Shown one piece after another: positions 36,079 to 53,825 of a stretch of DNA of 64,000 nt. Origin of the DNA: Candidatus Saccharimonadota bacterium (GTDB lineage: Bacteria > Patescibacteriota > Saccharimonadia > Saccharimonadales > Saccharimonadaceae); NCBI GenBank assembly GCA_003246575.1, contig QJZZ01000001.1, positions 31,978 to 95,977 of the forward strand, written 5' to 3'. A program made the translations under genes and the position numbers. The stretch's first letter is position 1, and each line of letters starts with the position of its first letter. Under the pieces are notes generated by a model. The model ran no database searches. It saw only the letters and a program-made list of their open reading frames with translations, and had not been told where the DNA came from.

Positions 36079-36096
36079 TGGCGGAGGAGGGGAGAT
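36079..36096 (-). repeat. direct 18-nt copy of the tRNA-Ser(GCU) 3' end
   Basis: tggcggaggaggggagat is identical to 36261-36278. Confidence 0.85.
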
Positions 36097-36197: not shown

Positions 36198-36216
36198 GCG
36201 GGAGTTCAAATCTCCC
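36198..36216 (+). repeat. inverted copy of tRNA-Ser(GCU) T-arm (18/19)
   Basis: gcgggagttcaaatctccc versus the reverse complement of 36272-36290 (gcgggagttcgaatctccc). Confidence 0.8.
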
Positions 36217-36260: not shown

Positions 36261-36353
36261 TGGCGGAGGAGGGGAGATTCGAACTCCCGCTGCAGGTCTC
36301 CCCACACTAACGATTTAGCAAACCGTCCCCTTCAGCCACTTGGGTACTCCTCC
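36261..36353 (-). tRNA. tRNA-Ser (anticodon GCU), CCA encoded
   Basis: Reverse complement: ggaggag-ta-ccc-aagtggctgaa-ggg-g-acggt-ttGCTaa-atcgt-long variable arm-gggag ttcgaat ctccc-ctcctcc-g-cca. Confidence 0.9.
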
Positions 36354-36491: not shown

Positions 36492-36884
36492 ATGAAGAAA
36501 ATGATATCAGCAGTTCTCAGCCTCGCCGTCATCGCTACGACGTCTCTTTATTTTGCTCCTGCGACTCATGCCCTTGATGGTGTCCAGAATGGCGCAAACG
36601 CAGCACGTGGCACCGATCAACCGATTGATCTTTTCGGCGCCAACGGCACCTTTTCACTGATTACAAACGTACTCCTCTTCATCATCGGTGCGATTGCAGT
36701 CATCATGATCGTCATCGGTGGCATGCGCTATGTGATCTCTGGAGGTGATTCAAACCAGATCACCGCTGCCAAAAACACGATTCTCTACGCCATCATCGGT
36801 ATCATCGTTGCGATTCTCGCATATGCCGCAGTCAACTTCGTTATCAGTAGCTTTGCTCCTGGCTCAACTGGTACGAACGTCTAG
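36492..36884 (+). CDS. T4SS-type pilin (TrbC/VirB2-like, Gram-positive/CPR 'T4SS_pilin' style)
   Basis: Signal peptide plus two TM helices flanking IGGMRYVISGGDSNQITAAKNTILYAIIG. Paralogous to the 42016-43985 genes. Confidence 0.8.
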   Translation: MKKMISAVLSLAVIATTSLYFAPATHALDGVQNGANAARGTDQPIDLFGANGTFSLITNVLLFIIGAIAVIMIVIGGMRYVISGGDSNQITAAKNTILYAIIGIIVAILAYAAVNFVISSFAPGSTGTNV

Positions 36885-38260
36885 GGTTTTTCGAGTAAGA
36901 CAAACGTCTCATCAGAGGATGGCATGACCTGCCATCCTTTTTCTATAAGCGCAGTTGATAGATCTTCGTCGCGGTACCAAAGGACACAGCGCACATCATA
37001 TCGCGCAAATTCTACATCACGAATCGTCGCATCGTCGCTCACGGATAGATACGTGTCCATATATTTCACACCGTCTTCATTCGTCCAGCTCGGCATACGT
37101 CCATCGATATAGACCGGCACGTCAGGGAGTTGCCAGATCATGTACCCACCAAAGTTGTAGTGATTGAACACGCGCCCAGGACATGGGTGTTCAGCCAAAT
37201 AAGCGACTTGCTCCGGTGCATACGGCGCAGCAGGCGTTGGCGGTAGGGATACGTAGCGTCCTACGGAGTACACAAGCCCCCCGACAAGCACCGAGGCAAG
37301 TAGCGTGAGACCGATACGGATGCCTCGTTCCCGCCACAGTGGCGCAAACGAGAACGTGTACGGAAGTTTCAGCTTCGACAATTCATACAGAGAAAACACG
37401 ATGAAGAGAGGGATATGCCGACCACTCATCAGGCTCATCGCAAACAAAAGAACATCGAGGTGCAACAGCCGCTTCCATTTGAACCCAGCGAACAAAATGA
37501 GTGCGCCCCAGAACCCAGCGTACGTACCAAAGAGCGCATCGACTTGCCACGGTTGCCATTCGCTGACTTGCAAATGAAGGGACGAGTCGGTCATCGTGCG
37601 AATAATCTCTTCGTACATGTGCCAGCCGTACGGATTAATGAACGTCACGGCCACGGCAGCGAGCAGAGCCGCCCAACGCAGCGGACGCTTCCAATGCAGG
37701 CGCAGCGTCTCAAGCCCAATATAGGCGAAGCCGAGCACAAACGATCCATGCATATTTGCCCAGACGAGCATCAATCCGATCATAAGCCAGTACCAACGAC
37801 GTAGGCGCACGATCAATATCAGGAGCGCAGAAAATAATACCGACACTGTGATGGCTCGAACACCCGCGTAGGGAAGGGCGATGACCGCCGCCAGTACGAG
37901 CGCAGAACGATATTTGAGCTTCCAGCCGGCAATCATGAACGCCGCCGTCCACGCCAGTGCGTGGAGAGCCGCCACAAGCCAATAGCCCACTTGATAGACA
38001 TAGCTCGTCAATACATCTGTCAGCCATTCATGATCGATCCACGGAAACGATCTCGCCGTATAGGTGAAAATGTCATGCTCCGGAATACCGCTTGCTCGGA
38101 TATACTCTCCGGCCGCAAGGTGCCAGCCAAAATCCGGATCATACAGAAAAAACCCGCGCACAAAAAATAGCGTAAAAACGATAGCTAGTACCGCCCACCT
38201 TGGCGGACGGATGATCCAAAGTAACGCTTGGTCTCGCCAATTCGCGAGGTGAACTTTCAT
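36881..38260 (-). CDS. polytopic membrane protein (~12 TM), GT-C/oligosaccharyltransferase-like (tentative)
   Basis: I trimmed the track ORF to MKVHLANW at 38260. There are many TM helices with a DPDFGWHLAAGEYI first loop and a ~150-aa C-terminal soluble domain. Confidence 0.6.
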   Translation of the reverse strand: MKVHLANWRDQALLWIIRPPRWAVLAIVFTLFFVRGFFLYDPDFGWHLAAGEYIRASGIPEHDIFTYTARSFPWIDHEWLTDVLTSYVYQVGYWLVAALHALAWTAAFMIAGWKLKYRSALVLAAVIALPYAGVRAITVSVLFSALLILIVRLRRWYWLMIGLMLVWANMHGSFVLGFAYIGLETLRLHWKRPLRWAALLAAVAVTFINPYGWHMYEEIIRTMTDSSLHLQVSEWQPWQVDALFGTYAGFWGALILFAGFKWKRLLHLDVLLFAMSLMSGRHIPLFIVFSLYELSKLKLPYTFSFAPLWRERGIRIGLTLLASVLVGGLVYSVGRYVSLPPTPAAPYAPEQVAYLAEHPCPGRVFNHYNFGGYMIWQLPDVPVYIDGRMPSWTNEDGVKYMDTYLSVSDDATIRDVEFARYDVRCVLWYRDEDLSTALIEKGWQVMPSSDETFVLLEKP

Positions 38261-38381
38261 AGTGACTACTATAACGGGAGATGGGGTGTAGGTACAGACG
38301 TTCATGCTATACTCAGCAGCCACACCCCCGATATTGACTTTTTCACATTTTTGATGTATAGTAAATGAATAAATTGCTGCT

Positions 38382-40268
38382 ATGCACGAAAACAAAAACC
38401 GCCAACACACAGAAGCAAACTATCGCCAAAAGATAGACACGGCGCTCGCGATACCGCTTGATGCCAAGACTATCGATAGCTACGCTGATGCTGCGATCGA
38501 CAACGTGGCAGCAATCCTGAACAGTGCAGTAGAGGGGTATGCGCACCAACCAACCATACACCTCGGCGAGGAGGCATCACAGCGAGAACGCGAAGATGCT
38601 GCTCTGTCATATTTTGGAATTGAAAATGTCGACTACATTATCGAGCATATCGTCAAAAAAGCCGACCAACTTCACGAGCTAGACAGCTTCATCACTCAGA
38701 TACCTCACATAGATACCGTCATCACCCCACCAGATACGGATGAGCAGTACGTAATTCGCCCAGGCAACGAGAAGCCATTCACGCGTGCCGAAGTACTGCC
38801 AAAACTAAAAACACTCCTCTTCATAGCAGAGAATGAGTTTGACATTGATATCCACGAGCCAGACCAGCTTCGGATATCACTCGGTCAAACGCCCGAAAAT
38901 AGTGTCCGCGAACACGGCTACTACACCGTTAAGTTTCCATCGATACATCGCACCGTTCTTGTCTGTGACGAAGCAAAAAATATGACGTTCGTACTCGACT
39001 CGTCGATACTAGATGACGCAAAAATCAACATCGATGCACTTAGCTCGATGACGAAGCAGTCGCTGAAAGAGTACATCGCACAGAACCCATCCAGTGGTCG
39101 ATCCATACCGTACACCGCGAACTACTCGACAGATATTCGACACGCACTTCATGACTTGTCGACCGAAACGCCAGAAACGAGCGAGGCGACCAATTATCTT
39201 GTGCCGCCAGCGCCCGAACATATACTTAGCGTAAAGAAGATTGCAGCAAAAGTTGCCGTCTCGGAACCCGTAGTGCGTAAAGCCATTCACGAACTTGGGA
39301 TTGCCGACAGCGGAGACTATCGATTCGGTCCGTACACTACCAAGGGCTACGACGAAGGCATCATCGACAGAATAGACGCATATTTAGAACAAAATGGCTA
39401 TCAGACAGCACACCCCCCCGAAGGTTCATTGAGCATCAACAAAATTAGCAGCATACTAGGCATCGATTATTACACCGCTTCAAATGCAGCTGCCGAGCTT
39501 GGCCTGCAGGGTCTAGGCAGCCATCGATTTGGAACCAGGATTGCCAAGGCATACAGCGAAGAGGATATGGAGAAAATACGCGACCACCTCAAGGCCGAGT
39601 GGCATCTAGACGAGCCCATACCAGAAGGGTATATGACTATCGTGGGGATTTACAGTGCGTTGAATGCAGGCAGGCGTGCTGTCGAGAGTCAAATTAGCAC
39701 CCTAGGGATCCGCCCCGCAGGAACATACATTATTGGATCAAAAAAGGCCGATGTATACAGCGACACAGACATCGCAAAGATTGCCAGAGGGCTCAAGGAT
39801 TCTGGGTACGCCACCGAAGTCGCACCAGACGGATATTTAAGCGCCAGGGGTATTGCAAAAAAGTTCGGAGTAGCAAACAGTTCTATCCAAAAAATCCTAT
39901 CAGATAACCCTAGTATACAAACATCTGGTTTGTATCGGTTTGGCCCACAATCTACCGATGCCTATGATACTGAAAATGTTGAAGCGGTTCGGAAAATACT
40001 TGATGCTCAAGGGTTCTTTTCGGGACCTGCGCCTGAAGGGTGTTCGTCAATAAGTCAAATTGCGACGCAGCAAAATCTCTCGATCCATCATATTGCAAAA
40101 ACGGTGGAGACGCTCGGTGTTAAACCAGTTGGCAGGTTCCGTTTTGGACATCGAATCGCAGATGCCTACCCCCCGGAATCAGTACAACAGATCGTCGACC
40201 ATGCCACTCAAGCGAGTGCTTCGAGAAAGAGGTCAATCGGCGAAGCCGCGACCAGTCCCTACGCGTAA
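38382..40268 (+). CDS. 628-aa protein: unknown N-domain + five tandem 68-aa winged-HTH-like repeats
   Basis: Promoter-like TTGACT-17-TATAGT lies upstream. The repeat anchors P-E/D-G/H fall at residues 278, 346, 414, 482 and 551. Confidence 0.8.
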   Translation: MHENKNRQHTEANYRQKIDTALAIPLDAKTIDSYADAAIDNVAAILNSAVEGYAHQPTIHLGEEASQREREDAALSYFGIENVDYIIEHIVKKADQLHELDSFITQIPHIDTVITPPDTDEQYVIRPGNEKPFTRAEVLPKLKTLLFIAENEFDIDIHEPDQLRISLGQTPENSVREHGYYTVKFPSIHRTVLVCDEAKNMTFVLDSSILDDAKINIDALSSMTKQSLKEYIAQNPSSGRSIPYTANYSTDIRHALHDLSTETPETSEATNYLVPPAPEHILSVKKIAAKVAVSEPVVRKAIHELGIADSGDYRFGPYTTKGYDEGIIDRIDAYLEQNGYQTAHPPEGSLSINKISSILGIDYYTASNAAAELGLQGLGSHRFGTRIAKAYSEEDMEKIRDHLKAEWHLDEPIPEGYMTIVGIYSALNAGRRAVESQISTLGIRPAGTYIIGSKKADVYSDTDIAKIARGLKDSGYATEVAPDGYLSARGIAKKFGVANSSIQKILSDNPSIQTSGLYRFGPQSTDAYDTENVEAVRKILDAQGFFSGPAPEGCSSISQIATQQNLSIHHIAKTVETLGVKPVGRFRFGHRIADAYPPESVQQIVDHATQASASRKRSIGEAATSPYA

Positions 40269-40320
40269 GGCTCCTCAGCTGCATAACAGGGAGGCGAGAT
40301 TCAATTTTGGCCATCGGGCA

Positions 40321-40360
40321 AAAATAATAAGACGACCGATATAGGTCGTCTTATTATTTT
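40321..40360. terminator. perfect bidirectional terminator hairpin
   Basis: aaaataataagacgacc gatata ggtcgtcttattatttt. Confidence 0.8.
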
Positions 40361-40448
40361 TGGCGGAGAGGGCGAGATTCGAACTCGCGGTGAGTTGCCC
40401 CACGACGGTTTTCAAGACCGTTACCTTAAACCACTCGGTCACCTCTCC
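40361..40448 (-). tRNA. tRNA-Ser (anticodon UGA), CCA encoded
   Basis: Reverse complement: ggagaggtgaccgagtggtttaaggta-acggt-ctTGAaa-accgt-variable arm-gcgag ttcgaat ctcgc-cctctcc-g-cca. Confidence 0.92.
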
Positions 40449-40557
40449 GTATATTGATTGTGAATTGTACCCACTGAGTACCGTGTGAAAACCGTCCGAA
40501 TTGACGTCTTCGTCATCAATTCCACGCCGGTTTGGTCGCTCCTGGCGACGCTTCGCC

Positions 40558-40593
40558 CAAGACCGTTACCTTAAACCACTCGGTCACCTCTCC
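40558..40593 (-). repeat. direct 36-nt copy of the 5' half of tRNA-Ser(UGA)
   Basis: caagaccgttaccttaaaccactcggtcacctctcc is identical to 40413-40448. Confidence 0.88.
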
Positions 40594-40630
40594 ATAATTA
40601 GTGAAGATACCAGGGGAGATTATACCAAAC

Positions 40631-41305
40631 TTACGGACGTACGTCGATAGGCTGACGAGAGGTGACTGCCACCCAGATATCACCAGCTCCTGCGTCCGCC
40701 AGAAGAGATGCGACTGCGCCGACGGTAAACCCAGTTGTATACACATCATCGACGAGAATATACGTAGTGTCCGCGGAGACAGGCCCAGAAAGCTCGTACG
40801 ACTCAGCAGCCTGGCGCTTTCGCTGCGTCCGCGACGCACCGTGCTGCACGTGTTGGACTTTTCGCGCGACGAGGTGCTGCAATGACACACGTCGTCGCCG
40901 TGCAAGTTCGGCCGCTATCTTTTCAGCGTGACCATACCCTCGCTGACGTATGTGGCGAGCGATTGTCGGGATGGGCACGATGATTGAACGTTCAGGAAGG
41001 TGGGGGAGAATCGCATCGAGAAGTTCAGCTTGGGCCCTACAGCCCGAGCGACTGGACCCGAACTTGCTCACAGACACCAGCGCGTCGAGCACACCCGTAT
41101 GTTCACCGACATACCAAGCATGTGAATAGGGCAATCTACACCGCGTACATCCACCCGACAACTGCCGTGGCAGCAAACAGGACGGACAGGCATCGGAGAA
41201 CTCTGAAACGATGTCGTCTTTACAACTTTCGCACAAAATGGCGCCAATTGCTCCGCAAGAGCAACAGTAGTCGGGCAAAATGAGCTCTAGAGGACCGTGT
41301 GGCAT
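40631..41305 (-). CDS. comF: ComF-family phosphoribosyltransferase-like protein
   Basis: An N-terminal Cys-rich zinc-finger-like region (CCSCG..CESC..CPSC..CTRC) plus the PRTase motif YILVDDVYTTG. I trimmed the track ORF to MPHG at 41305. Confidence 0.82.
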   Translation of the reverse strand: MPHGPLELILPDYCCSCGAIGAILCESCKDDIVSEFSDACPSCLLPRQLSGGCTRCRLPYSHAWYVGEHTGVLDALVSVSKFGSSRSGCRAQAELLDAILPHLPERSIIVPIPTIARHIRQRGYGHAEKIAAELARRRRVSLQHLVARKVQHVQHGASRTQRKRQAAESYELSGPVSADTTYILVDDVYTTGFTVGAVASLLADAGAGDIWVAVTSRQPIDVRP

Positions 41306-41414
41306 TGTTATTTTTACGTATACCCCTCTCGCGCGCTTGCGTATCTTTACAATAGTAGTTATAATCTCAAGTAGACTAGACGTCAAACTAGAGCCTAGAA
41401 AAGTGGAGGATATC

Positions 41415-41894
41415 ATGGCCCGTAAACAAAATGACGATTTGCTTATCGAGGACGAGCTGGCAGCAGCATTTCTCGATGACGACACGACTACTCCGGTTGA
41501 CGAACCGGTTGCCCAAGCTCCCGTACAGGAACAAGTGCAAGAAGACTGGCAAGACGAGCAGGATGATTTTCCTGGCCAGCTCGCTGTGGATGTATATGAA
41601 ACCGACGAACAACTCGTCATCAAAGCCCGCACCGCAGGCGTCAACAAGGAAGACCTTGATGTCAGCATTTCTGACGGCATCCTGTCTATTAGCGGCACCC
41701 TCAGTAGCGGCGACGACTCAGACGCAACCAACTGGCACGTTCAGGAATGTTACTGGGGCGAATTCAACCGCACCTTGGCACTTCCTGTTGCTGTTCGCGA
41801 AGAAGAAGTTGGCGCTGTCCTCAAAGACGGTGTCCTGACAATCACCTTCAATAAGGTCAAGCAAGAGCAGGCAAAGAAGATTACTATCCAGTAG
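41415..41894 (+). CDS. Hsp20/alpha-crystallin small heat-shock protein
   Basis: GGAGGA RBS. PGQLAVDVYETDEQLVIKA..GVNKEDLDVSISDGILSISG..FNRTLALP..AVLKDGVLTITF is the ACD pattern. Confidence 0.88.
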   Translation: MARKQNDDLLIEDELAAAFLDDDTTTPVDEPVAQAPVQEQVQEDWQDEQDDFPGQLAVDVYETDEQLVIKARTAGVNKEDLDVSISDGILSISGTLSSGDDSDATNWHVQECYWGEFNRTLALPVAVREEEVGAVLKDGVLTITFNKVKQEQAKKITIQ

Positions 41895-42015: not shown

Positions 42016-42402
42016 TTATGCAGCGAAACTTGTGATAACGAAGTTGACAGCTGCGTATGCAAGGATAGCAACAATGATACCGATGATGGCATAGAGAATC
42101 GTGTTCTTCGCAGCAGTTACGGCGTTTGAGTCACCGCCAGATACAGTGTAGCGAATACCACCGATAACGAGCATGACGACAGCAACGGCACCGATGACAA
42201 AGAGGAGCACGTTAACAACTGTCTGGAAGACACCGCCTTCGCCGGTCAAGTTACTTGCCTGGCCGTTACCCCTGGCAGCATTGACTGAGTCACTAAGGCC
42301 TGGTACTACAGCAAACGAATCAGCTGGCAAGACAGAGCCAACGACGAGCGCAGCTACAGGCAAGGCAGCGATAAGGCCGATAAGTTTTTTGCTAAATTTC
42401 AT
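42016..42402 (-). CDS. T4SS-type pilin
   Basis: Signal peptide plus IGGIRYTVSGGDSNAVTAAKNTILYAIIGIIVAILAYAAVNFVI. The 28-aa TAAKN..NFVI block is identical to the same block in the 36492 product. Confidence 0.82.
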   Translation of the reverse strand: MKFSKKLIGLIAALPVAALVVGSVLPADSFAVVPGLSDSVNAARGNGQASNLTGEGGVFQTVVNVLLFVIGAVAVVMLVIGGIRYTVSGGDSNAVTAAKNTILYAIIGIIVAILAYAAVNFVITSFAA

Positions 42403-42477
42403 TGATGCTATCCCTTCTTAATTTAGTAGCGTCTTTATCTATTATTTATACCAGATAACGGATTGGGCGTAAAGCCC

Positions 42478-42843
42478 CTAGGCAAAGATCATGATGACGA
42501 ACTGGACTATCGCATAGGCGAATATTGCAACAGCGAGTCCGATGACCGCATACATGATCGTGTCTTTGGCTGCCTTGATTTGACCTGGCTCGCCATTTGA
42601 CGTCGTATAACGAATGCCGCCGACAATAATCATGATCACCGACACGCTACCGATCAAATACAATAAAGTATTGATGATGTTCCGGATCAAGCTTGTTGCA
42701 TCATCGGTATTCGCAGCCTTACATACCTGTGCGTCAGGGTTAGCCGCGCAATCATCGAACACATTGATGGCACCGACTGGCGCAACCAACAGGGTAGAAC
42801 CGAGCCCTACGAGGGTTAATAGATATCCTAATCGTTTCAGCAT
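42478..42843 (-). CDS. T4SS-type pilin
   Basis: Signal peptide plus VGGIRYTTSNGEPGQIKAAKDTIMYAVIG between two TM helices. Confidence 0.8.
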   Translation of the reverse strand: MLKRLGYLLTLVGLGSTLLVAPVGAINVFDDCAANPDAQVCKAANTDDATSLIRNIINTLLYLIGSVSVIMIIVGGIRYTTSNGEPGQIKAAKDTIMYAVIGLAVAIFAYAIVQFVIMIFA

Positions 42844-42852
42844 ATAGACTCC

Positions 42853-43593
42853 TTATCCTACGCTTCCTAATACAAATTGAGTGATAATGTATGCCATCAG
42901 TACTACGATGAGCCCAACAACGGCGCCCAGTATGCCCTTACGTGCACGCTGAACCATCTGCGCATCCCCACGAGACGTCACAAAGAAGAAGCCTGCGATG
43001 ACGATGACGAGCACCGCGACGATTGCCGCCCATATATATGCCGCATTCAAGATTGCAGCCAGTGCGCTCTGATCAGCGCCAACCTGTTGGATGTTCACAT
43101 TAGTACCGCCTATCTTCGATGTCGTACTCGTAGCAGTGAAGATCGATGAGACAAGCGTGACTGTCGCAACAGAAAAGATCGATATAATCAATCCCACCAA
43201 GGAATTGGTGATGGTCTTTTTTGCCGACGTCATGAGATTTGAATCACCAGCACTTGTAATGTACTGATAGCCACCCACGATCAACATAACAAGAGCCGCA
43301 TACCCAACGAGCTGCAGGATAATCTCGATAACGTTCATGACGATACGAGTTACGTATCCTTCGATACCGATTTGCGTATTTGGGTCGGTGACTTTACTCG
43401 CAATATCCTTCAGCTCACAGTTCGTCCCCGGTTTTGTCAGGCCCTTGTACCATGCAGGAAATGTGAGAAGCGTATCGCCACAAGTAGGACCTGTTGCATA
43501 CGTGCTTGTCGCTGGCTGCGCGATAGCTACCAGACCAGAGAGGCTGCCAATTATGGCAAGTGACAGTACGAATCGTTTGAATGTACGAATCAT
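42853..43593 (-). CDS. tandem (two-domain) T4SS-type pilin fusion
   Basis: Starts at MIRTFKRF (43593, TAATG overlap with the upstream gene). It contains two pilin modules: VGGYQYITSAGDSNLMTSAKKTI.. and IAGFFFVTSRGDAQMVQRARKGI.. Confidence 0.78.
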   Translation of the reverse strand: MIRTFKRFVLSLAIIGSLSGLVAIAQPATSTYATGPTCGDTLLTFPAWYKGLTKPGTNCELKDIASKVTDPNTQIGIEGYVTRIVMNVIEIILQLVGYAALVMLIVGGYQYITSAGDSNLMTSAKKTITNSLVGLIISIFSVATVTLVSSIFTATSTTSKIGGTNVNIQQVGADQSALAAILNAAYIWAAIVAVLVIVIAGFFFVTSRGDAQMVQRARKGILGAVVGLIVVLMAYIITQFVLGSVG

Positions 43594-43985
43594 TAGTTGA
43601 ACACCCCTCCTGGGACCAGCCACTGTATGGCCGCCCACATCAATGCGTACGCAACAATACCGATTGCCGCATTTCGAATCATCTCCTTTGCCTTCTTCGT
43701 CTGCCCCTCATCTGATTGGGCGGTAGTGTAGAGGAATGCTGCATAGGCAATCATTGCTACAGCAGCAAGACCGACCGCTCCACTCAATATGTTGACGATA
43801 TAGATCACGAGTAACCACGTACTGCTTGATTCAAGGTCCCCAGCATCAGACCCATCACATATACTCTGGGGGAGGACAGTACAGGTAATTCCAGCAGCGT
43901 ACGTAGGCGTTGATACTACCAGCGCCCCGCCAAGTAGTACGGTCAGTACCCCCGATGAGACGATTATTTGTTTTATTAGATTCAT
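43593..43985 (-). CDS. T4SS-type pilin (divergent)
   Basis: Signal peptide and two TM helices flanking AYAAFLYTTAQSDEGQTKKAKEMIRNAAIG. Confidence 0.72.
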   Translation of the reverse strand: MNLIKQIIVSSGVLTVLLGGALVVSTPTYAAGITCTVLPQSICDGSDAGDLESSSTWLLVIYIVNILSGAVGLAAVAMIAYAAFLYTTAQSDEGQTKKAKEMIRNAAIGIVAYALMWAAIQWLVPGGVFN

Positions 43986-44108: not shown

Positions 44109-47100
44109 ATGTGGGTTATGCGCAAACTACGCGCGCCGAGGGTACACGTTCGGCGCCTTATTTTTTTGACGGTCATCAGCGTATTTATGGCCGCTCTTAC
44201 CTCAGTCGTTTCGTTCTCGAATACGGCTTTTGCTGCTGATGCCGAATGGAGTGGTGTGACGCTTAGCTACGATGGCAACACCTACGCGGCCACCACGGCT
44301 GCACCTGATCGCCCCGGCGAGCCGAACGAATACCAATGGATAAGTAGCCTTTCTTCGCCAGCGACGGCAAATGTTCTCTATTTTGCTGATGACATTGATC
44401 CGACAGATGCAACCACCGCAACTTTTATCAGTTATACATTTACAGCTCCGGGAAGTAACTATTCGTCACCATCAAGCCCAGTGACCGTTACTGTGACTCG
44501 CGATCTCACTGCAACTGCCGCGAGCGGCACCACAGACTGTGGCGTTGGTGCTATTGGTTGGATTGTTTGTCCAGTGTCAAACTGGATCGCCGACGGCGTT
44601 GACTGGATCTATGACACTATCTCAAACTTCTTTGATGTACAAACGATCACCCAGTCGGGGAACGGTATATATGAGCTTTGGCAACTCGTCAGAACCATTG
44701 CAAACGTTGTCTTCATCATCGTATTCCTCATCATCATATTCTCTCAGATAACCGGCGCAGGCTACTCCAACTACAGCATCAAAGATATGATACCGCGCCT
44801 TATTATCGGAGCAATTCTTGTCAACGTCTCGTTCTGGATCTGCGCACTTGCCGTAGATACATCAAATGTACTCGGCCATTCGATTCAAGCCGTTTTCGAT
44901 AATGTACGGCAAAATTACGTCACAACCGTAGATATAGACTGGACAGCCGCGACAGGTGCCGTGCTCGGTGGACTCGGCATTGCAGGTGTTACCGGGTTTG
45001 CCGCAGCAACAGCAGGAAGCAGCATAAGCCTGTCTTTTATCCTCATCTCCGTCTTGATACCTGCAGCCCTGTCTGTGCTTGCCGCGTTCATCGTACTTGC
45101 AGCTCGCCAAGCGATTATCGTTGTGCTCACAGCGATATCGCCACTCGCATTTGTTGCTTTCGTGCTCCCGAACACGCGAAACCTTTTCGATAAGTGGCGC
45201 AGCCTCTTCACCAACATGCTCATCATCTTTCCAGCATTCGCACTTCTATTTGGTGCATCACAAATTGCCGGAGCAGCGATCATCAAGACGGCCGAGAATG
45301 CCGCAGATGAACTTCAACTCGTCTTCGTTTTGATCGGTCTCGCTGTGCAGGTGATTCCACTCGCACTCACGCCACTGCTATCGCGACTCAGCTCAGGCCT
45401 CCTGAGCCAGGTTTCTGGTATGGTCAATAACCGTCAAAAGGGCCTGGCCGACCGCGCACGCAACTGGGCGCAAGACAACGCCGATATGCATAAAGCACGC
45501 AAACTTGGCAATATCGCCAACGACGTACAACGTCGACGCGAGGGCTTGCAAGTTAGTCCGCTACGCGCTCGTGGTATCGGGCGCCTCGGGTACAATATGG
45601 ACCAATCAAAGCGCACCAGGGAAGCCTACAAGCATCAAAGCGAAGAACTTCTGTCAGCTCAACACGAGGAGCGCTGGAATAACCGTATCGCCAATCCTCG
45701 AGAGGCCGGTGCCGTCCGTTCACGTCTCGGTATGACAACGCTCGACCAGCGCACCGCAACCCAGCACGACATGGCCCACCACGTTAAAAAGCAGGCCGAG
45801 ACCCGCAAAGCGGATCATGAGGCACATGCCGACCAACACTGGAACGAGTACCTTGATGGCGCTGCAGGCGCTGAATACAGGCAACTTCGCCACAACACTC
45901 ATGTCACCAAAGGTATCTCAAAGGTATATGACGATGATATGACCAATGCCGATGAGCTAGCACTCAAGGCATTCGTGAACAATACGGCCGCTCACCGTAC
46001 ACGCGCCGTTCGTGCATCCGTCACTGCCAACCAAGCAAAGGCGCATCAAGACAGTATCGACGCGACAGTGCAAGAAACATGGAACTTGCAACAAGAGGGA
46101 GACGTAAATCTCCGCGCCATGCGTCGTGAGACTGCGCTAACCCAAAAGCGTGCCGAGGTAGTAGAGAAGTCTATGGCTGCTGATGATCAGCGCGTATACG
46201 AAACGCTCGCAAACTCCGATCCAGGATATGCCCAAGTCCGTCAACGACGCGTTCAGACAGTCGTCGATAGCAAGATGGGCGAGTTCCAGGGTAGTCAAAT
46301 CGAAACCGAAGGTGCTCGCGCCTACGCGGCACTGTTCGAGGACGGCCAAGCCGGTTCACGTGCCCTTCGTCAGCAGAATGTTCAGATGGAACAGATGAAG
46401 AAAGAAACCGCCACGATAGAGGCAACCCTCCAGAAGCGCGCTGATGCACACTGGGAGCGCGTATCTCAATCTGACGCAAACGTACAAACACTTCGTGTGC
46501 GACAGACCGACGCCGAGGAGTCTGCACGCAGGTCTGCTGCCGAATGGAACAGCCTAGTTGAACGCGTCCGCGACCAAGGTGCCGCCGCAGACGGATTTGT
46601 TGGCACCACCCAAGACGGCAACTCACTTCAGGCGAACTTCAACGCCGCAACCGGCGCAGAACAGAACCTCGAAAACCTCAAGTCAGTTACCCAAAGCCAC
46701 GCAAAGCAACGCTTCGCCGAAACAGAAGCCGGACGTCGCTCTGCCTTGCGCGCACAAGCGGCCAAAGATTCGCTCGAGAGCGTTCAAGCCGATGAAGCTG
46801 CTCGCGCCCAAGAACTCCGCACCAACAGGGATATTGAAAACCTCACAGGCGAGGACCTCGCTATCGCAACAGAGATGCGCAATGCCGATATCGTTAAGCG
46901 CGCCCAAGATCGCCGCAAAGCGAATGCACTTGGTCAAACTGATGCAGAGTACGCAAGTGAAGTGGCAAGTGACACAGGGTACATACCTGGCACAACCGAG
47001 CGCATAGCCACCATCGCCGGCGGTATAGACAATTACGGCGAGGCACGTGCTATCGCGAGCGCCACCCAAGTAGAAGTCGACCAGTTCAACAAGAATGTCG

Positions 47101-47801
47101 CAACAGAAAAGTCTACGATGACCGGCATGCCCGACAGGTCCGACGACCCGAACAGAGAAACCTGGATGAGCATCGTTCAAGACGACAGTCAGTCTGATGA
47201 ACGTCGCGCTGCTGCTGCTGGCAAGATTATGCAGGGTGGAGCGATGGGTACTATCCAAGCCCTTTACAACTATGCAATTAGCGACCCTAACCTCAGCGAG
47301 CGCTCACGTAAGAATATTGAGATGCAGATGGGTGGCGATATCGGCCGAGTGCCATTTGGTATGGGCGCGGGTGCCCGTGCAGCTATGGCGAGTGGTGCGA
47401 TGGACGCCGATACGGCATTCGCCGGGTTTAATGCAGAACAACGCGCAGCAATCGTAATAGCCATGCAGAACCCAGACGCCGTAAGCCAGCAAAACATTGG
47501 CCAGCTCACACACTATGATGCAATGCTGGGCAACCGCCTCAAGGAAAAAATCTCCGCAGAAGCACTGGTCGGTCTCGACCCAGATGATCGCACCCGCATC
47601 ACCGAACTCTTCAGTGACATCCAACATGACGGCGGCCTCGTACTCCCAGCGGAAGCACGTGCGAATATCATTGATGCAATCCGCGGTGCAGCCTCGAACG
47701 AAAACCTTCGCAAGACCGTACCGCCAGATGCCAAGCGCAGCTACAACACGATCCTTGCAGCGCTTGGTGAGACACCTCTCACCCGTGAAGACTGGGCATA
47801 A
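44109..47801 (+). CDS. VirB6/TrbL-like polytopic T4SS channel protein with ~790-aa hydrophilic C-terminal extension
   Basis: Signal/TM, extracytoplasmic domain, CGVGAIGWIVCPV motif, ~6 TM including ISPLAFVAFVLPNTRNLFDKWRSLF, then an Ala/Gln/Arg/Glu-rich tail. Confidence 0.78.
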   Translation: MWVMRKLRAPRVHVRRLIFLTVISVFMAALTSVVSFSNTAFAADAEWSGVTLSYDGNTYAATTAAPDRPGEPNEYQWISSLSSPATANVLYFADDIDPTDATTATFISYTFTAPGSNYSSPSSPVTVTVTRDLTATAASGTTDCGVGAIGWIVCPVSNWIADGVDWIYDTISNFFDVQTITQSGNGIYELWQLVRTIANVVFIIVFLIIIFSQITGAGYSNYSIKDMIPRLIIGAILVNVSFWICALAVDTSNVLGHSIQAVFDNVRQNYVTTVDIDWTAATGAVLGGLGIAGVTGFAAATAGSSISLSFILISVLIPAALSVLAAFIVLAARQAIIVVLTAISPLAFVAFVLPNTRNLFDKWRSLFTNMLIIFPAFALLFGASQIAGAAIIKTAENAADELQLVFVLIGLAVQVIPLALTPLLSRLSSGLLSQVSGMVNNRQKGLADRARNWAQDNADMHKARKLGNIANDVQRRREGLQVSPLRARGIGRLGYNMDQSKRTREAYKHQSEELLSAQHEERWNNRIANPREAGAVRSRLGMTTLDQRTATQHDMAHHVKKQAETRKADHEAHADQHWNEYLDGAAGAEYRQLRHNTHVTKGISKVYDDDMTNADELALKAFVNNTAAHRTRAVRASVTANQAKAHQDSIDATVQETWNLQQEGDVNLRAMRRETALTQKRAEVVEKSMAADDQRVYETLANSDPGYAQVRQRRVQTVVDSKMGEFQGSQIETEGARAYAALFEDGQAGSRALRQQNVQMEQMKKETATIEATLQKRADAHWERVSQSDANVQTLRVRQTDAEESARRSAAEWNSLVERVRDQGAAADGFVGTTQDGNSLQANFNAATGAEQNLENLKSVTQSHAKQRFAETEAGRRSALRAQAAKDSLESVQADEAARAQELRTNRDIENLTGEDLAIATEMRNADIVKRAQDRRKANALGQTDAEYASEVASDTGYIPGTTERIATIAGGIDNYGEARAIASATQVEVDQFNKNVATEKSTMTGMPDRSDDPNRETWMSIVQDDSQSDERRAAAAGKIMQGGAMGTIQALYNYAISDPNLSERSRKNIEMQMGGDIGRVPFGMGAGARAAMASGAMDADTAFAGFNAEQRAAIVIAMQNPDAVSQQNIGQLTHYDAMLGNRLKEKISAEALVGLDPDDRTRITELFSDIQHDGGLVLPAEARANIIDAIRGAASNENLRKTVPPDAKRSYNTILAALGETPLTREDWA

Positions 47802-48932: not shown

Positions 48933-51806
48933 ATGGTCGGCAAGTTAAAGCGTGTATTTCTATTTGTAGCAGTAGCGGCGGTCGTGAGCTCAAATTTCTC
49001 ACTCCTTATTAGTGATACAGCCAACGCCTCGGCGTTCGATGACGCGGGTTACCAGCAGAAAGTTCTAATGTATAGCACCGCAAAAGGTGTGTACGACTGT
49101 TTCACCTTTGGGGCTGACCTGAAGAGTGGTATCAACGACCTAAAGAACGGTGCACTATTTGATGGAGGCTTCACATACAGAACACATATTAACCTATCTA
49201 AATACACATCCATCGAGAATGATGCGGGCCTAAGCAAGGATTTTGGTTGTCAAGACAACGAAAACAGATTAGCAAAGCTGTTTTTTCAAACGTTTGGGAT
49301 AGATGATACTATTGACTTTTTGTGCCAAATTGGATACCGCGCCAGCGGAGACACCGATCTATGCGCCACTGGCGGCGCAGGCTCCGGTAATCTCGTGACC
49401 GATAGCAAAGAGCAGACCGCCAATAAGCTTTCAAGCTACATCAATGAGAATTTTGGACTGAATGTCGGGGGTGGGGTAGTTGATAGTGGATTCTATGCCC
49501 AATATACACTCGACACTCTTTTAAGCCCTGACGCCTGCGGCCTGTCTCGAGTGACAAATGTTGGCAATACTTCCGAGGATTATGTATACCAGACAAACGC
49601 ATCCGGGCAATCAGTGACGTATGTCGGTGCCGAGGCGAAGAACCATAGTGTAAAACTTGTCAAGGAAGACGACTACGGCGTTAGTAGCACAGTGGATAGC
49701 CGCACCTGCGAGCAACTCTTCCAAACATACACGTCAAATCTCGAATACTCAGTAGCCACTACAAACCGTGACGCAGAAGAGTGGTGCAGTGCGCAGTACA
49801 TAGATTCCAGCCTAAAGAACGCATGCGAGGCTGGATACCTCGGTATAGACTGTAGCACTACGTATGTCGCGTCATCTGGAACAACCACCCCATACTATGA
49901 CCCAAACACCGGAACGACTACTACGGGCTGGACTGAAGAGCAGGCAGCCACAAGACGCGCCGCCTGCGAAGCCGGCTCAACACAAGCGCCGGAGACATAC
50001 GATCAGCAAAGCCTCGATATCAGCAGTGATGTAGTGACCTGCGCCATAGAGTCAATTGGCTGGATTATATGCCCAGTCATCACCACTCTCGGCAAAGTGG
50101 CAGACTCGGCCTTCGGTCAGGTCGAAACAATGATGACTGTCGATACGAACACACTCTTCGAGCCCAACGGGACCGCATATGGTGCCTGGAGTAACATGCG
50201 CAGCATTGCAAATGTATTATTCATCGCTGCCTTTCTCGTAATCATATACTCCCAGATCACTGGAGCGGGCCTTTCAAATTACGGTATCAAAAAGATGATT
50301 CCGCGTTTGGCAATCGCTGCAATACTCATCAACCTGTCGTGGTATATCAGCGTAGCTGCTATAGAGATATCAAATGTCATTGGGTCAAGTATGATGTCCA
50401 CCATAGCCGGCACACAAAGCAACGAAATACCCGCACCCGCCCTACAGAGCGACTGGCAAACTGGCAATATTGGCACCGGATTTGTCGGCTGGGCGGCCGC
50501 GGCAGCCGTCGTCGGAGCGGCTGCGTTCTTTTTCACCGGAACAGTGCTCGCCGCACTCCTGTATGTCGTGTTTGCGGTACTCACCGTTGTACTCCTACTG
50601 GGCTTAAGGGAAGCGCTACTCCTGCTCGTCGTGGTCTTGTCTCCACTGGCGTTCGCCGCTAATCTTCTGCCGAATACTGAAAACTTGTTCAAGAAATGGT
50701 GGGACCTATTCAAAGTACTTCTACTGGCCTTTCCGATTGTCGGGTTGATGTATGGACTCGGAAAGTTAGCTGCGGGTGTACTATTCAAGACCGGCGAGTG
50801 GCAGACTCAGATCTTCGGTATGGTCGCTATGTTCGCCTGGATTTTTGTCCTCAAAAAAGTACTTGAGTCGGCAACCTCTATCGGAGGCTTGAGTGGACTG
50901 GTAGGCAAGGTAACGGGCGGAGCGCATGGTCAAGCCGGAAAATATGCCGCCGGATCAGCTCTTGCCAAGGCGGGTCAATATCGACAAGCACAAGCTACAA
51001 AGAATCGCGGTCTCATACAATCAGGCGCATACAAAGGCAAGAACCCGCTTGGTCGTGCAGCATCAGCAATCAATAAACGCATCAACAATAGCCGCCTGAG
51101 TGGTGGGTTTGGCACGCAAATGGCTGCGGCAGGTGTTCAGGCAGCACAACAGCAAACAGCAGCAGCAGTAGCCACCCAGCAGGCAGCTATGCAGGGTCTT
51201 GGCGCCGACAAGCTATTAAGTGTAGCAAAAGATAAAAAATCTTCGAAAGAAACCCGTGCAGCCGCGTTTAAGCAACTTGCGGCCACCGGAGGAACCCAGC
51301 ATGTCCAGGATGCCCTCGATTACATGATGAAAGAGGGCGCCAAAACGGGCAAAGATAGAGATGCCGATATCTCCGACATCCAACAGCTAGCAGCAGCAGA
51401 CATCGCCGCACGCAAACCAGCCGGTCTCGGTAAACGAGCTGCTACTGACTTGGCTAATGGCACACTCAAGGGGCCAGGATACAACCATGCACTACGACAA
51501 CGAATACGAGATGGTGCTATTGGCGCTGAAGATTTTGCCAAAATGGACCCCGACGACCACGCCCGACTCGCTCTCATGCAAGCTGGTGGAGCATTCGATG
51601 CAGAAGATACCAAGAAGCTACAGGCACTACACAATGACGTTATGACTAGCTCAAACTACGGGTATAGTCCACAGACGCAACACCTTGCCGAACAAACTGT
51701 CAACGGACCTGCAGGCGGGCCGGGTTCGGGAACGGCAGGCGTCACGAAGTTTGACGGTAGTAACCTTGAGCAAAGCATAACTCAATTGGATATACCTAAG
51801 CCCTAA
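48933..51806 (+). CDS. second VirB6/TrbL-like polytopic protein with Cys-rich extracytoplasmic N-domain
   Basis: Paralogous core: CAIESIGWIICPV, IIYSQITGAGLSNYGIKKMIPRLAIAAILINLSWY and LSPLAFAANLLPNTENLFKKWWDLF. Confidence 0.78.
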   Translation: MVGKLKRVFLFVAVAAVVSSNFSLLISDTANASAFDDAGYQQKVLMYSTAKGVYDCFTFGADLKSGINDLKNGALFDGGFTYRTHINLSKYTSIENDAGLSKDFGCQDNENRLAKLFFQTFGIDDTIDFLCQIGYRASGDTDLCATGGAGSGNLVTDSKEQTANKLSSYINENFGLNVGGGVVDSGFYAQYTLDTLLSPDACGLSRVTNVGNTSEDYVYQTNASGQSVTYVGAEAKNHSVKLVKEDDYGVSSTVDSRTCEQLFQTYTSNLEYSVATTNRDAEEWCSAQYIDSSLKNACEAGYLGIDCSTTYVASSGTTTPYYDPNTGTTTTGWTEEQAATRRAACEAGSTQAPETYDQQSLDISSDVVTCAIESIGWIICPVITTLGKVADSAFGQVETMMTVDTNTLFEPNGTAYGAWSNMRSIANVLFIAAFLVIIYSQITGAGLSNYGIKKMIPRLAIAAILINLSWYISVAAIEISNVIGSSMMSTIAGTQSNEIPAPALQSDWQTGNIGTGFVGWAAAAAVVGAAAFFFTGTVLAALLYVVFAVLTVVLLLGLREALLLLVVVLSPLAFAANLLPNTENLFKKWWDLFKVLLLAFPIVGLMYGLGKLAAGVLFKTGEWQTQIFGMVAMFAWIFVLKKVLESATSIGGLSGLVGKVTGGAHGQAGKYAAGSALAKAGQYRQAQATKNRGLIQSGAYKGKNPLGRAASAINKRINNSRLSGGFGTQMAAAGVQAAQQQTAAAVATQQAAMQGLGADKLLSVAKDKKSSKETRAAAFKQLAATGGTQHVQDALDYMMKEGAKTGKDRDADISDIQQLAAADIAARKPAGLGKRAATDLANGTLKGPGYNHALRQRIRDGAIGAEDFAKMDPDDHARLALMQAGGAFDAEDTKKLQALHNDVMTSSNYGYSPQTQHLAEQTVNGPAGGPGSGTAGVTKFDGSNLEQSITQLDIPKP

Positions 51807-51825: not shown

Positions 51826-52965
51826 ATGGCAACCTACAAAGTAGCTCAAGATGTCGAAGCTGATGACAAACTGCTCGGACCGTTCGGGTTCCGTCAGTTT
51901 ATTTACCTAATTATTGTCGCAATGGCAGGGTTCATTGCCTATGGTCTATGGCAGATTCTGCCTCCGCTTGCCATCATACCATCGCCAATCATCATCTTCT
52001 TCGGCGCACTTGCGCTGCCGCTTCGCAAAGACCAACCAATGGAAACATACCTGGCTGCGATGGTGTCGTTTTATCTCAAGCCACGCAAACGTCTCTGGAG
52101 CCCGGATGGTGTGGAGAATATCGTCGAAATCATCGCCCCAAAGACCGCCGAGGACAACCTCACAAAGAACTTCAACGGCAATGAAGCCGATCGTCGGTTG
52201 TCGTATCTGGCAGACCTAGCAGACAGTAGGGGATGGGCGATTCGACACGCTGCAGGCCCTACGGCCGGCACATCTATGCTTGGTGATGTCTACATCGAGG
52301 CACAAACCGCAGAAGATGTCCTCGAAGAACATGGTAATCTTGCTCAAAACATTGACTCCCTTATCGGCAGGGCAGATGCAGCGCGACGCCAAGAGCTCAT
52401 AGAGAGTATGCGTCGTCCCCAACCGGCGCCGCAGCCACAGCAGCCGATCACACAGGTATCACCCGTCGCATACGCTACCCCAGCAGCATACGCACAGCCA
52501 TTCCAGGCACCGTCGCCCCAAGCATATACGCCAGTGCTAGAGCCCGCCCCTCAACCACCCCAAGCACCATACATCCCACAGCAACCCGTGCAGCAATACC
52601 CAACACAAGCAGGTCCTGCGCCCGCACCAGACATAGATACATCAAACCTACAGTTCAATCCATATCCATCAATTCATCAGAGCGTCATCCAGCCGCTCGT
52701 TGCTCCTGCTCCTGCTCCTGCTCCTGCGGGGACGGTACCCGCAAATCCAACTGCCACACAACCGGCCGAACCAGTCGTACAGGCACCGGTTCAACCCGAG
52801 CCACTACCGGCACCGAAAACAGAGGAAAGCACTAGCGATACGAGTGTCACACCTGATATAATGAATCTTGCAAATAATTCACAGAACTTGTCGGTGGAGA
52901 CAATCGCGCGTGAGGCAGATCGCCTCAAGGGAGATTCTGACGAAGTAGTTATCTCGCTACGGTAG
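51826..52965 (+). CDS. PrgI/VirB3-like protein with long P/Q-rich C-terminal region
   Basis: VAQDVEADDKLLGPFGFRQFIYLIIVAMAG plus a second TM matches the PrgI-family N-terminus. Confidence 0.7.
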   Translation: MATYKVAQDVEADDKLLGPFGFRQFIYLIIVAMAGFIAYGLWQILPPLAIIPSPIIIFFGALALPLRKDQPMETYLAAMVSFYLKPRKRLWSPDGVENIVEIIAPKTAEDNLTKNFNGNEADRRLSYLADLADSRGWAIRHAAGPTAGTSMLGDVYIEAQTAEDVLEEHGNLAQNIDSLIGRADAARRQELIESMRRPQPAPQPQQPITQVSPVAYATPAAYAQPFQAPSPQAYTPVLEPAPQPPQAPYIPQQPVQQYPTQAGPAPAPDIDTSNLQFNPYPSIHQSVIQPLVAPAPAPAPAGTVPANPTATQPAEPVVQAPVQPEPLPAPKTEESTSDTSVTPDIMNLANNSQNLSVETIAREADRLKGDSDEVVISLR

Positions 52966-52988: not shown

Positions 52989-53825
52989 GTGGGCGTGCCG
53001 CCAAACCAACAGTTACCGCCATCGATGGGCCAACAACCGATGCAGCCAGGTGTTTCTGGTACTGCAGTGCAGGCCGATGCCGAGCAGCAGAAAAAGGCAC
53101 AGACTAACCAAACCACTACTCAAAAAAGCCTCCTCTTCTCCGAGCTACGCGACAGCATGATCATCATGGCAGACGGCTCATACCGTGCAGTTATCGCGTG
53201 TGAGTCAATCAACTTTGACCTTATGAGTAATCGCGAACGCGAAGGAGTTGAGTATAGCTACCAAAACTTCCTGAATTCACTCAACTTTCCGATTCAAATC
53301 CTCGTCCGCTCACAGCGAGTTGACATCACTCCGTATATCGAGAAGCTTCAGAATATTCGCCGCACACAGGACAATATGCTCCTCGGTGTACTTATGGATG
53401 ATTACATTATGTTTATCGCTGATCTCGCAGAGCAGGCAAACATCATGGACAAAAGCTTTTATATCGTCGTGCCATACTCGGCCGGTGGCGAAGGTGGTAA
53501 GATCGTCGAGCAGGGCAAGGGCTTCTTCGGCAAGTTATTTGGCAGCACCGGCCCCGTCGTCACTAAGATCGACCAAGCAAGTTATGAAAAAGCAAAGACC
53601 GAGATCGGCAACCGCGTTAGTGTCGTCACGAGTGGTCTTTTTCAACTTGGCGTCCGGGCTGTTCAGCTCAAAACCAAAGAGCTTGGCGAACTCTATTACA
53701 ATATGTATAATCCCGATACTGCCGTCAACCAGCCGCTCGGTGATTTTAGCCAGATAACGCCTATCTACATCAAAAAAGGGGAGAATGCCCCGGCCGTTGA
53801 CCCATCACAAGGAGGAGTTGTCTAA
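52989..53825 (+). CDS. T4SS-associated protein resembling a stand-alone VirB4 N-terminal domain
   Basis: GTG start (52989 or 52995) after an AAGGAG RBS. MIIMADGSYRAVIACESINFDLMSNREREGVEYSYQNFLNSLNFPIQILV. TAATG overlap with virB4. Confidence 0.6.
   Translation: MGVPPNQQLPPSMGQQPMQPGVSGTAVQADAEQQKKAQTNQTTTQKSLLFSELRDSMIIMADGSYRAVIACESINFDLMSNREREGVEYSYQNFLNSLNFPIQILVRSQRVDITPYIEKLQNIRRTQDNMLLGVLMDDYIMFIADLAEQANIMDKSFYIVVPYSAGGEGGKIVEQGKGFFGKLFGSTGPVVTKIDQASYEKAKTEIGNRVSVVTSGLFQLGVRAVQLKTKELGELYYNMYNPDTAVNQPLGDFSQITPIYIKKGENAPAVDPSQGGVV

Follow-up and report, generated by a model that had tools for sequence, protein, structure and literature searches.

The 64,000-nucleotide stretch analysed here (positions 31,978 to 95,977 of contig QJZZ01000001.1 from a Candidatus Saccharimonadota bacterium; hereafter the window) carries at 38382-40268 of its forward strand an open reading frame (ORF) for a 628-residue protein, and we use REP as a short name for both the gene and its product. 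REP combines a conserved N-terminal domain with a C-terminal array of five tandem modules, each predicted to be a winged helix-turn-helix (wHTH) domain of the type found in MerR regulators and excisionases, and it is one member of a large family specific to the Candidate Phyla Radiation (CPR; Patescibacteria). Its flanks hold a divergent gene for a 509-residue membrane protein, tRNA-Ser(tga), a ComF-like phosphoribosyltransferase, Hsp20 and a Gram-positive-type type IV secretion system (T4SS) cluster. The protein has an isoelectric point (pI) of 5.4 and, judged by eye, no signal peptide or transmembrane segment; its first methionine lines up with the start of its homologues in the alignment. 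With unit boundaries and secondary structure taken from the sequence anchors, a hidden Markov model (HMM) of family units and AlphaFold2 models, the parts of the gene are as follows:

38382..40268, + strand: whole REP gene; 628 residues from an ATG start; N-terminal domain and five wHTH units
38382..38696, + strand: helical subdomain, residues 1-105; helices 14-22, 34-55, 67-77 and 83-105; predicted local distance difference test (pLDDT) mostly 84-97
38697..38801, + strand: extended linker, residues 106-140, with a conserved 'PPD...GxGxF' motif
38802..39152, + strand: alpha/beta core, residues 141-257, in the order a-b-b-b-b-a-a-a-b-a
39153..39209, + strand: variable acidic leader, residues 258-276, ending in a conserved 'YL' (L273) before the first unit
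39210..39413, + strand: unit 1, residues 277-344; helices 284-291 and 295-305, hairpin 312-315/318-321, helix 325-337
39414..39617, + strand: unit 2, residues 345-412; helices 352-359 and 363-372, hairpin 380-383/386-391, helix 393-407
39618..39821, + strand: unit 3, residues 413-480; helices 420-426 and 431-441, hairpin 447-451/454-459, helix 461-474
39822..40028, + strand: unit 4, residues 481-549; helices 488-495 and 499-508, hairpin 516-520/523-528, helix 530-542
40029..40253, + strand: unit 5, residues 550-624; helices 557-563 and 568-578, hairpin 584-588/591-596, long final helix 598-624

An earlier note on this DNA, made from the sequence alone, had proposed five tandem repeats of about 68 residues in the span 39204-40217 (residues 275-612). 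The P-(E/D)-(G/H) anchors indeed fall at residues 278, 346, 414, 482 and 551, at spacings of 68, 68, 68 and 69 residues, and homologous units of about 68 residues extend over residues 277-624. All ten pairs of units gave local BLOSUM62 scores of 60-100, against 21-24 +/- 4-5 for shuffled sequences (z = 8.6-19.1), with 0 of 300 shuffles attaining the observed score; the N-terminal 277 residues showed no resemblance to the units (z <= 2.1). An HMM built from 714 family units recovers exactly five units in REP, with domain E-values between 4e-9 and 1e-15, and finds no further unit outside REP in the six-frame translation of the window, which thus holds no paralogue. Repeat detection, on which the earlier claim had been staked, therefore supports five homologous units by both the shuffle statistics and the HMM. 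The units of REP are unusually diverged within the family, being 22-34% identical among themselves (25-32% for units 2-5 against the first), and unit 3, in which YRFG is replaced by YIIG, is the most divergent. Tandem Repeats Finder reported nothing at the DNA level in 39204-40217, and hence the duplications in REP are old and diverged.

An AlphaFold2 model of a single unit, built from an alignment of 72 diverse family units, has a pLDDT of 91.4 and consists of a strand (positions 6-8), two helices (9-16 and 20-30), two strands (37-40 and 43-49) and a closing helix (50-63), i.e., the order b-a-a-b-b-a. The same elements recur five times in the full-length model of REP (pLDDT 90, predicted template-modelling score (pTM) 0.62), where each unit shows a helix-turn-helix (HTH), then a wing formed by a beta-hairpin at 'YRFG', then a trailing helix. 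The arrangement first read from the letters is thus what structure prediction returns for all five units, with no sign of a non-HTH fold. A Foldseek search of the PDB with the unit model matched the RacA-DNA complex with a probability of 1.0 and a template-modelling score (TM) of 0.66, and further matches include the RdfS excisionase, the DNA-binding domain of pSK1 Par (TM 0.76 on the target), Pukovnik Xis, CbpM, BldC (6amk, 6ama), the MerR regulators NmlR, CarH, BmrR, SoxR and TnrA, and the N-domain of IF2; the matches to the MerR/excisionase class reach probabilities of up to 1.0 at TM 0.5-0.76. In the viral library BFVD, the full-length REP model matched phage HTH proteins with 1-3 modules (E-values 6e-4 and 9e-4), the best matches carrying the labels 'HTH', 'MerR-type' and 'excisionase family'. 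By prediction, then, the unit has the winged helix fold of the MerR/excisionase type, with the characteristic order of strand, helix, recognition helix, wing and back-packing helix.

By sequence, the unit falls outside the Pfam HTH_17 and MerR families. The best Pfam matches of the whole protein were to GntR (23.8 bits, cut-off 27) and Rrf2 (22.8 bits, cut-off 30), with no match to HTH_17 or MerR, and NCBIfam gave only sub-threshold HTH matches. When the 72 family units were searched against Pfam, two touched HTH_17 (PF12728; best E-value 0.021, below the cut-off), 17 matched HTH_11 and 10 GntR, with further matches to HTH_36 and MarR_2, all weak and below the cut-offs. The earlier assignment to excisionase/MerR-type HTH_17 domains thus stands at the level of the fold, as the Foldseek matches indicate, and lapses as a statement of Pfam membership. 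A profile of the same 72 units run against the sequences of the PDB found Cbp2 (2lvs; 5.4e-5 over unit positions 7-60), followed more weakly by CodY (9e-4), AdcR, GntR-type proteins, BirA, RacA (0.061) and engrailed.

The matches to Cbp2 and engrailed suggested a different, homeodomain/Myb-like phase, that is, a three-helix domain that includes the preceding helix. We compared the two phases by covariation across 585 consecutive unit pairs from 150 family members, scored as mutual information with average product correction (MI-APC, mean of the top ten). The closing helix is coupled to the HTH helices of its own unit at 0.078 and to those of the next unit at 0.030, the latter equal to the level of the reverse control (0.035); of the two, same-unit coupling was the higher in 60/60 protein-level bootstraps, and single same-unit couplings include A26-Y61, L16-R59 and Y6-S51. 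Moreover, the last unit retains its closing helix as well as the inner units do, the first unit lacks a preceding helix in the full-length model, and RacA aligns with the full-length REP model at TM 0.65-0.68, the same as with the unit model. Covariation and the terminal units thus indicate that a unit's post-wing helix packs on that unit and not on the next one, and on these grounds we rejected the homeodomain/Myb-like phase; together with the unchanged RacA superposition, they argue that each unit is a self-contained MerR/Xis-like domain.

The N-terminal domain is acidic (pI 4.8 in REP, family median 4.6). Its helical subdomain is marked by the conserved residues Y34, A35, A38, E71 and L87, and the linker is the least confident part of the model (pLDDT 59 for residues 121-130). 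Across the family G168, R176, Y180, N200 and K225 are invariant, and Y34, E71, L87, P116, L146, C195, D196, E197 and G239 are near-invariant even with the Moraniibacteriota included; the most distinctive motif of the core, RtvLVCDEakNmTfVlD, spans residues 190-206 (38949-38999). The invariant Arg, Tyr, Asn and Lys, along with the Cys-Asp-Glu turn, suggest a catalytic or ligand-binding pocket. Readings of these residues as those of a PD-(D/E)xK, Toprim, AEP, GIY-YIG or ART-like domain were set aside on reasoning from strand order or motif positions, which misfit. The description of this region of about 270 residues as unassigned holds: it has no Pfam or NCBIfam match in REP, 35 members searched against Pfam gave scattered single matches only, its profile found only coiled-coil noise among PDB sequences, and PADLOC gave no match. 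Foldseek searches of the PDB and BFVD with the whole REP model, which are dominated by the repeats, returned repeat-type matches only.

REP is not the singleton it had been taken for. An exhaustive profile search retrieved 1348 representatives of clusters at 50% at an E-value of <= 1e-3, among which 893 are at <= 1e-10 and 522 at <= 1e-30. Word-indexed searches with the single sequence, an N-terminal profile or a 150-sequence profile returned the same five homologues each time, at 27-37% identity, with a REP-type N-terminal domain and 3 to about 10 units. A scan of GTDB genomes with the REP sequence gave no relatives; these were found with a sub-alignment sharing LVCDEEGN, and comprise metagenome-assembled genomes (MAGs) of Saccharibacteria, including Microsaccharimonas, plus MAGs labelled otherwise. 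The best 150 of the 1348 representatives are 426-1009 residues long, nearly all begin with the N-terminal domain and carry 2-10 units (mode 4-5) with a modal period of 70 residues; the family consensus unit is APEGYLSISGLAKKLGVSRKTVKKAIEELGDELGEVKKYRFGSRVAPGYSPEQQEIIREYLEERGLL. We define the family by an N-terminal domain of about 270 residues with the invariant residues and the C-D-E turn, followed by at least two units of about 70 residues. REP has all of these residues, the turn and five units, and scores 281 bits with the family HMM for the N-terminal domain and 228 bits with that for the units, though it is a divergent member without the QQ pair (Q54, Q55). The REP-type N-terminal core is also carried by Moraniibacteriota, Peregrinibacteria and 'Nomurabacteria', the first of these with a variant repeat (APEGWMT...NPEWFK...YSPEL). 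Relatives of the Moraniibacteriota type (locus L015 5692-7803; locus L013 144-1724; P0158) retain the N-terminal core MVLVCDEEGNASYII, and their repeat has a 'KYRxxNPEWFKFF' insert and 'GWMT' instead of 'GYLS'. No relatives were found among 50,697 phage records, 72,556 plasmid records or IMG/VR. The family is large, CPR/Patescibacteria-specific and chromosomally encoded, and the only annotation its members bear at source is 'hypothetical protein'.

The history of the units within this family is one of turnover. Among the 150 representatives, units of different proteins are 30.3% identical at the same index and 30.1% identical at different indices, whereas units within a protein are 39.8% identical. 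The lack of positional orthology and the higher identity within proteins point to repeated gain and loss of units, or to their homogenisation, and thus to modules that are functionally equivalent.

Several known systems share the fold of the unit. BldC binds variable numbers of direct repeats, head-to-tail, by its wHTH alone, and Xis and RacA are its architectural relatives (PMC5859096); excisionases form cooperative head-to-tail filaments on DNA (PMC5859096 reference 37; PMC11963761), those of RdfS being helical (PMC11963761). The REP unit resembles BldC in fold class and in being a wHTH without a coiled-coil dimeriser or effector domain. However, BldC is a free, stand-alone protein of 68 residues that oligomerises on DNA and has no significant sequence similarity to the REP unit, whereas the REP family has 2-10 fused modules behind a 270-residue domain (in REP itself, five modules and a 276-residue N-terminal domain in 628 residues), its array is not basic and its binding to DNA is conjectural. 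The excisionases (lambda Xis, Pukovnik Xis 4j2n, RdfS 8dgl) share the winged two-helix HTH fold, and viral models of the 'excisionase family' match; REP differs in having several modules and a large N-terminal domain, in staying below the Pfam HTH_17 threshold and in belonging to a chromosomal, housekeeping-type family, which across at least 15 loci shows no consistent integrase or att context.

The DNA-binding domain of Bacillus subtilis RacA is the best structural match (5i44/5i41; probability 0.97-1.0, TM 0.63-0.68), is also among the profile matches and, like the proposed REP array, uses the fold architecturally rather than for transcription. RacA carries a single wHTH, then a coiled coil, and works as a symmetric dimer in binding DNA (PMC5859096), whereas REP has five wHTH modules, no coiled coil and an extra domain at the N-terminus. 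The MerR regulators (BmrR, MtaN, SoxR, CarH, NmlR, TnrA) share an N-terminal wHTH that includes the helix after the wing. In REP this helix runs for 13-15 residues before the next unit begins, and only that at 598-624 is longer, where the protein ends; the long dimerisation helix and effector-binding domain of MerR regulators are thus lacking, and the modules stand in tandem rather than as a symmetric dimer, with Pfam MerR unmatched. The archaeal CRISPR-repeat-binding proteins Cbp1 and Cbp2 have 2-3 HTH repeats in tandem, linked through a basic segment, and bind repeated DNA (PMC3597662). Cbp2 is the best sequence-profile match of the unit in the PDB and has tandem HTH repeats, but these are three-helix homeodomain-like bundles that take in the preceding helix, unlike the REP unit with its helix after the wing; furthermore, Cbp1 and Cbp2 are archaeal, whereas the REP family is bacterial and has a large N-terminal domain. 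Finally, two or three consecutive MerR/Xis-type modules of phage multi-HTH proteins (A0A6J5NTK4 and A0A1C9EI55, the two BFVD matches cited above) align with REP; these phage proteins and those of phrog_323 are shorter, with 1-3 modules and no such N-terminal domain, and none of the phage records searched shows BLAST-level similarity to REP. In line with the earlier note, which knew of no characterised protein with five such modules, we found none, and no description or annotation of such a fusion, in the PDB, Pfam, PHROGs, PADLOC or the literature searched. The module fold itself is known; the fusion of 2-10 modules behind a conserved N-terminal domain, the size of the family and its restriction to the CPR had no description or annotation in these searches.

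Our preferred reading is of REP as a covalent array of the Xis/BldC kind, lying along DNA with an N-terminal effector domain attached. We give it a probability of roughly 0.45, since DNA binding is inferred only and the array is not basic. The protein would be cytoplasmic, its C-terminal 350 residues forming a head-to-tail string of five self-contained modules joined by short linkers. This string would lie along double-stranded DNA, each module contacting it by a mildly basic HTH-plus-wing face and adjacent modules touching successive equivalent sites about one helical turn apart, and would thus be a one-chain counterpart of the filaments that Xis, RdfS and BldC assemble on direct repeats from free modules. 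How much DNA is covered would depend on the module count (2-10 in the family), and the array would serve to position or anchor the N-terminal domain, which is acidic and strongly conserved.

A large share of bacterial diversity belongs to the CPR, whose lineage-specific proteins mostly lack an assigned function; the REP family is large, conserved across several CPR phyla, usually found among housekeeping genes and wholly unannotated. On the preferred reading, the head-to-tail filament behaviour of MerR/Xis-type winged helices would have become a fixed, countable array, with the prediction that footprint length scales with module number. Such an array would be a natural modular DNA-binding scaffold and a handle on the chromosome biology of ultra-small bacteria. 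The N-terminal domain is a candidate new fold or enzyme. A bolder extension, which we offer as speculation and hold unlikely, is that the family forms a chromosome-associated, possibly essential machine of the Patescibacteria, in which a single-chain Xis/BldC-like nucleoprotein filament, tunable in length by its 2-10 modules, coats or measures DNA and delivers an N-terminal enzyme of new fold with R/Y/N/K and Cys-Asp-Glu in its active site, replacing a DNA-organising or DNA-processing function otherwise missing from these reduced genomes.

Several results weigh against an array on DNA, and some of them favour its strongest competitor, in which the modules are protein-binding or scaffolding beads on a string, like the tandem winged helices of UFL1 or like CbpM, and the N-terminal domain carries the activity. 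Free Xis and BldC-type proteins are strongly basic, and the repeat region of REP is not (pI 6.4; family median 6.6). The best-conserved positions of the unit are P3, E4, G5, S8, G35, K/R41, Y50, S51, P52, Q54, Q55, I58 and L62, from which the surface that stands out is P3, E4, G5, S8, S51, P52, Q54 and Q55 rather than Arg or Lys of the recognition helix; this near-neutral to acidic array with E4, Q54 and Q55 on its most conserved surface would suit a protein partner. The MerR/Xis-type fold is also known to serve partners other than DNA, as in CbpM, which binds the J-domain of CbpA, and in the IF2 N-domain, both among the structural matches of the unit. The Foldseek E-values of the unit are all >= 0.045, as is usual for small domains of 60-70 residues. 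In the 64-kb window, which is a small part of the genome, the suggested check for a periodic DNA target, made here for exact words, came up empty: there were neither tandem repeats nor exact 6-mer arrays with at least 4 copies at 8-45-bp spacing. Lastly, the family has no general operon partner across the loci examined, and genomic context names no consistent functional partner; this also leaves the scaffold without a conserved neighbour that would hint at its client. Homogenisation of units within a protein would fit an oligomeric or repetitive protein partner equally well.

We nonetheless regard the scaffold as unlikely. Among the structural matches, DNA-bound wHTH domains are both the best and the most numerous, and the matches of the full-length model to UFL1/DDRGK1, though among the top ones, have a probability of 0.23-0.28 and TM of 0.06-0.13. 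Charge separates by face, the HTH and wing being positive (+1.1 and +2.0 per unit, respectively) and the loop after helix 2 and the closing helix negative (-1.75 and -0.76), with wing position 41 being K or R in 84% of units. Classic HTH sequence features are also retained: Ser caps helix 1 at its N-terminal end, the turn carries 'LGVS..T' and the wing K/R. Were the array to bind protein after all, the family would be a bacterial equivalent, and an unusual one, of the scaffolds that eukaryotes build from tandem winged helices.

Less probable again is a conventional sequence-specific transcription factor, whose units would each read a stretch of a single long composite operator. HTH modules would suit such a role, but the absence of positional orthology and the variable unit number speak against a fixed composite site, the surroundings of the gene hold no repeated motif, and the largest and most conserved part of the protein is the 270-residue domain with its enzyme-like invariant polar residues. 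The profile of phrog_323, labelled 'transcriptional regulator, D5-like', does match the repeats (residues 562-690 of P0003 at 3.6e-13; residues 283-471 of REP at 1.2e-3). However, phage T5 D5 itself (L021 12311-13078), tried as a characterised relative on account of this label, is not similar to the unit, with an hhalign probability of 1% and a generic 22-residue HTH match. The gene having its own promoter-like site and terminator is likewise compatible with a regulator; these signals are:

38334..38362, + strand: sigma-70-like promoter consensus TTGACT-17-TATAGT, 10/12 matches, with the ATG 20 nt downstream, in the divergent intergenic region
40319..40362, strand not assigned: intrinsic-terminator hairpin with a 19-bp perfect stem, a 6-nt loop, an A-run before and a T-run after

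The promoter named in the earlier note is present as a sequence, but such consensus sites are not enriched in the region (6 observed against 6.9 in shuffles), so that by itself this match says little for a promoter. The terminator, described there as perfect, is fully supported (dG -35.1 kcal/mol, z = -9.0); it abuts the 3' end of the opposite-strand tRNA-Ser(tga) and is therefore probably bidirectional, serving both REP and this convergent gene. The divergent ORF for the 509-residue polytopic membrane protein (36881-38410, - strand), which has no Pfam match, is listed with a GTG start that overlaps the REP start codon by 29 nt. Its translation probably begins instead at an internal Met ('MKVHLANW', about 38260), in which case some 120 bp would remain as a divergent promoter region.

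That REP is a recombination-directionality or other mobile-element gene (a multi-Xis protein) of an island integrated at the flanking tRNA-Ser genes, as its excisionase-type fold, the partial tRNA duplicates (36079-36096, 40558-40596) and the nearby T4SS cluster might suggest, is most improbable, and we rejected it on the empty phage, plasmid and IMG/VR searches, to which may be added that the family occurs in hundreds of lineages with differing housekeeping neighbourhoods and no consistently adjacent integrase, that GC content across the gene region is ordinary and that the tRNA-Ser(tga) duplicate copies the 5' half of the gene and not its 3' end.

Both flanking tRNA-Ser genes do have partial duplicates, as had been noticed. 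The 5' 39 nt of tRNA-Ser(tga) (40413-40451) recur at 40558-40596 with 97% identity, 145 bp upstream of the tRNA gene, and the 3' 18 nt of tRNA-Ser(gct) (36261-36278) recur exactly at 36079-36096, 182 bp beyond its 3' end, with a 19-nt inverted copy of its T-arm region in between (36198-36216 against 36272-36290). These fragments may be scars of integration or excision events; integrases normally duplicate the 3' end of a tRNA gene, and att sites do not typically involve a copied 5' half.

The position beside a T4SS cluster and between tRNA genes, to which the earlier note drew attention, is real in the window but is not conserved across the family. At 15 or more loci the neighbourhoods are of a housekeeping kind and differ from each other, and REP behaves as a stand-alone chromosomal gene. 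Neighbours elsewhere include TruB, S15, PNPase, RNase J, FtsK, SmpB, RRF, TsaD, UvrA, LigA, MurG and MurC, as well as an oxidoreductase, a Band 7 protein and an aldolase. Mur ligases lie near a REP homologue at three loci (L008, L009 and L015, the last with the order murG-REP-murC), and at L016 the gene of an 874-residue relative and the start of ligA overlap. A convergent gene for a ComF-like phosphoribosyltransferase follows REP at three loci (the window, L001 and L018).

The T4SS cluster of the window comprises five small T4SS_pilin (PF18895) genes, one of which is set apart from the other four by the REP gene, a PrgI-like gene, a TraG/VirB4-like ATPase and a cell-wall hydrolase with lysozyme and CHAP domains. 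Its ORFs are:

36492-36884: T4SS cluster ORF
42016-43985: T4SS cluster ORFs
44109-47801: T4SS cluster ORF
51826-52965: T4SS cluster ORF
53825-55654: T4SS cluster ORF
58023-59351: T4SS cluster ORF

Large ORFs of the cluster without a Pfam match include 48933-51806 and 55678-58023, and a 1230-residue ORF of the window corresponds by position to a TrbL_3-annotated gene of 1248 residues in L018. In that metagenomic contig, whose REP protein is 30% identical to that of the window, the order REP, phosphoribosyltransferase, Hsp20, pilins, TrbL is retained. At this one locus a serine recombinase lies some 2 kb upstream of the REP homologue, which is not a recurrent arrangement; at L018 54-3938, 2-6 kb upstream of the homologue, an N6/N4 DNA methyltransferase and an SMC-like ATPase accompany this large serine recombinase, and the segment is probably an inserted element or defence island, without counterpart in the window. 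The ComF-like ORF of the window (40631-41731, - strand) is listed with 366 residues from a TTG start, but its phosphoribosyltransferase domain occupies only the C-terminal 229 residues or so and the N-terminal extension overlaps the opposite-strand Hsp20 gene (41280-41894, + strand); its true start probably lies near 41320.

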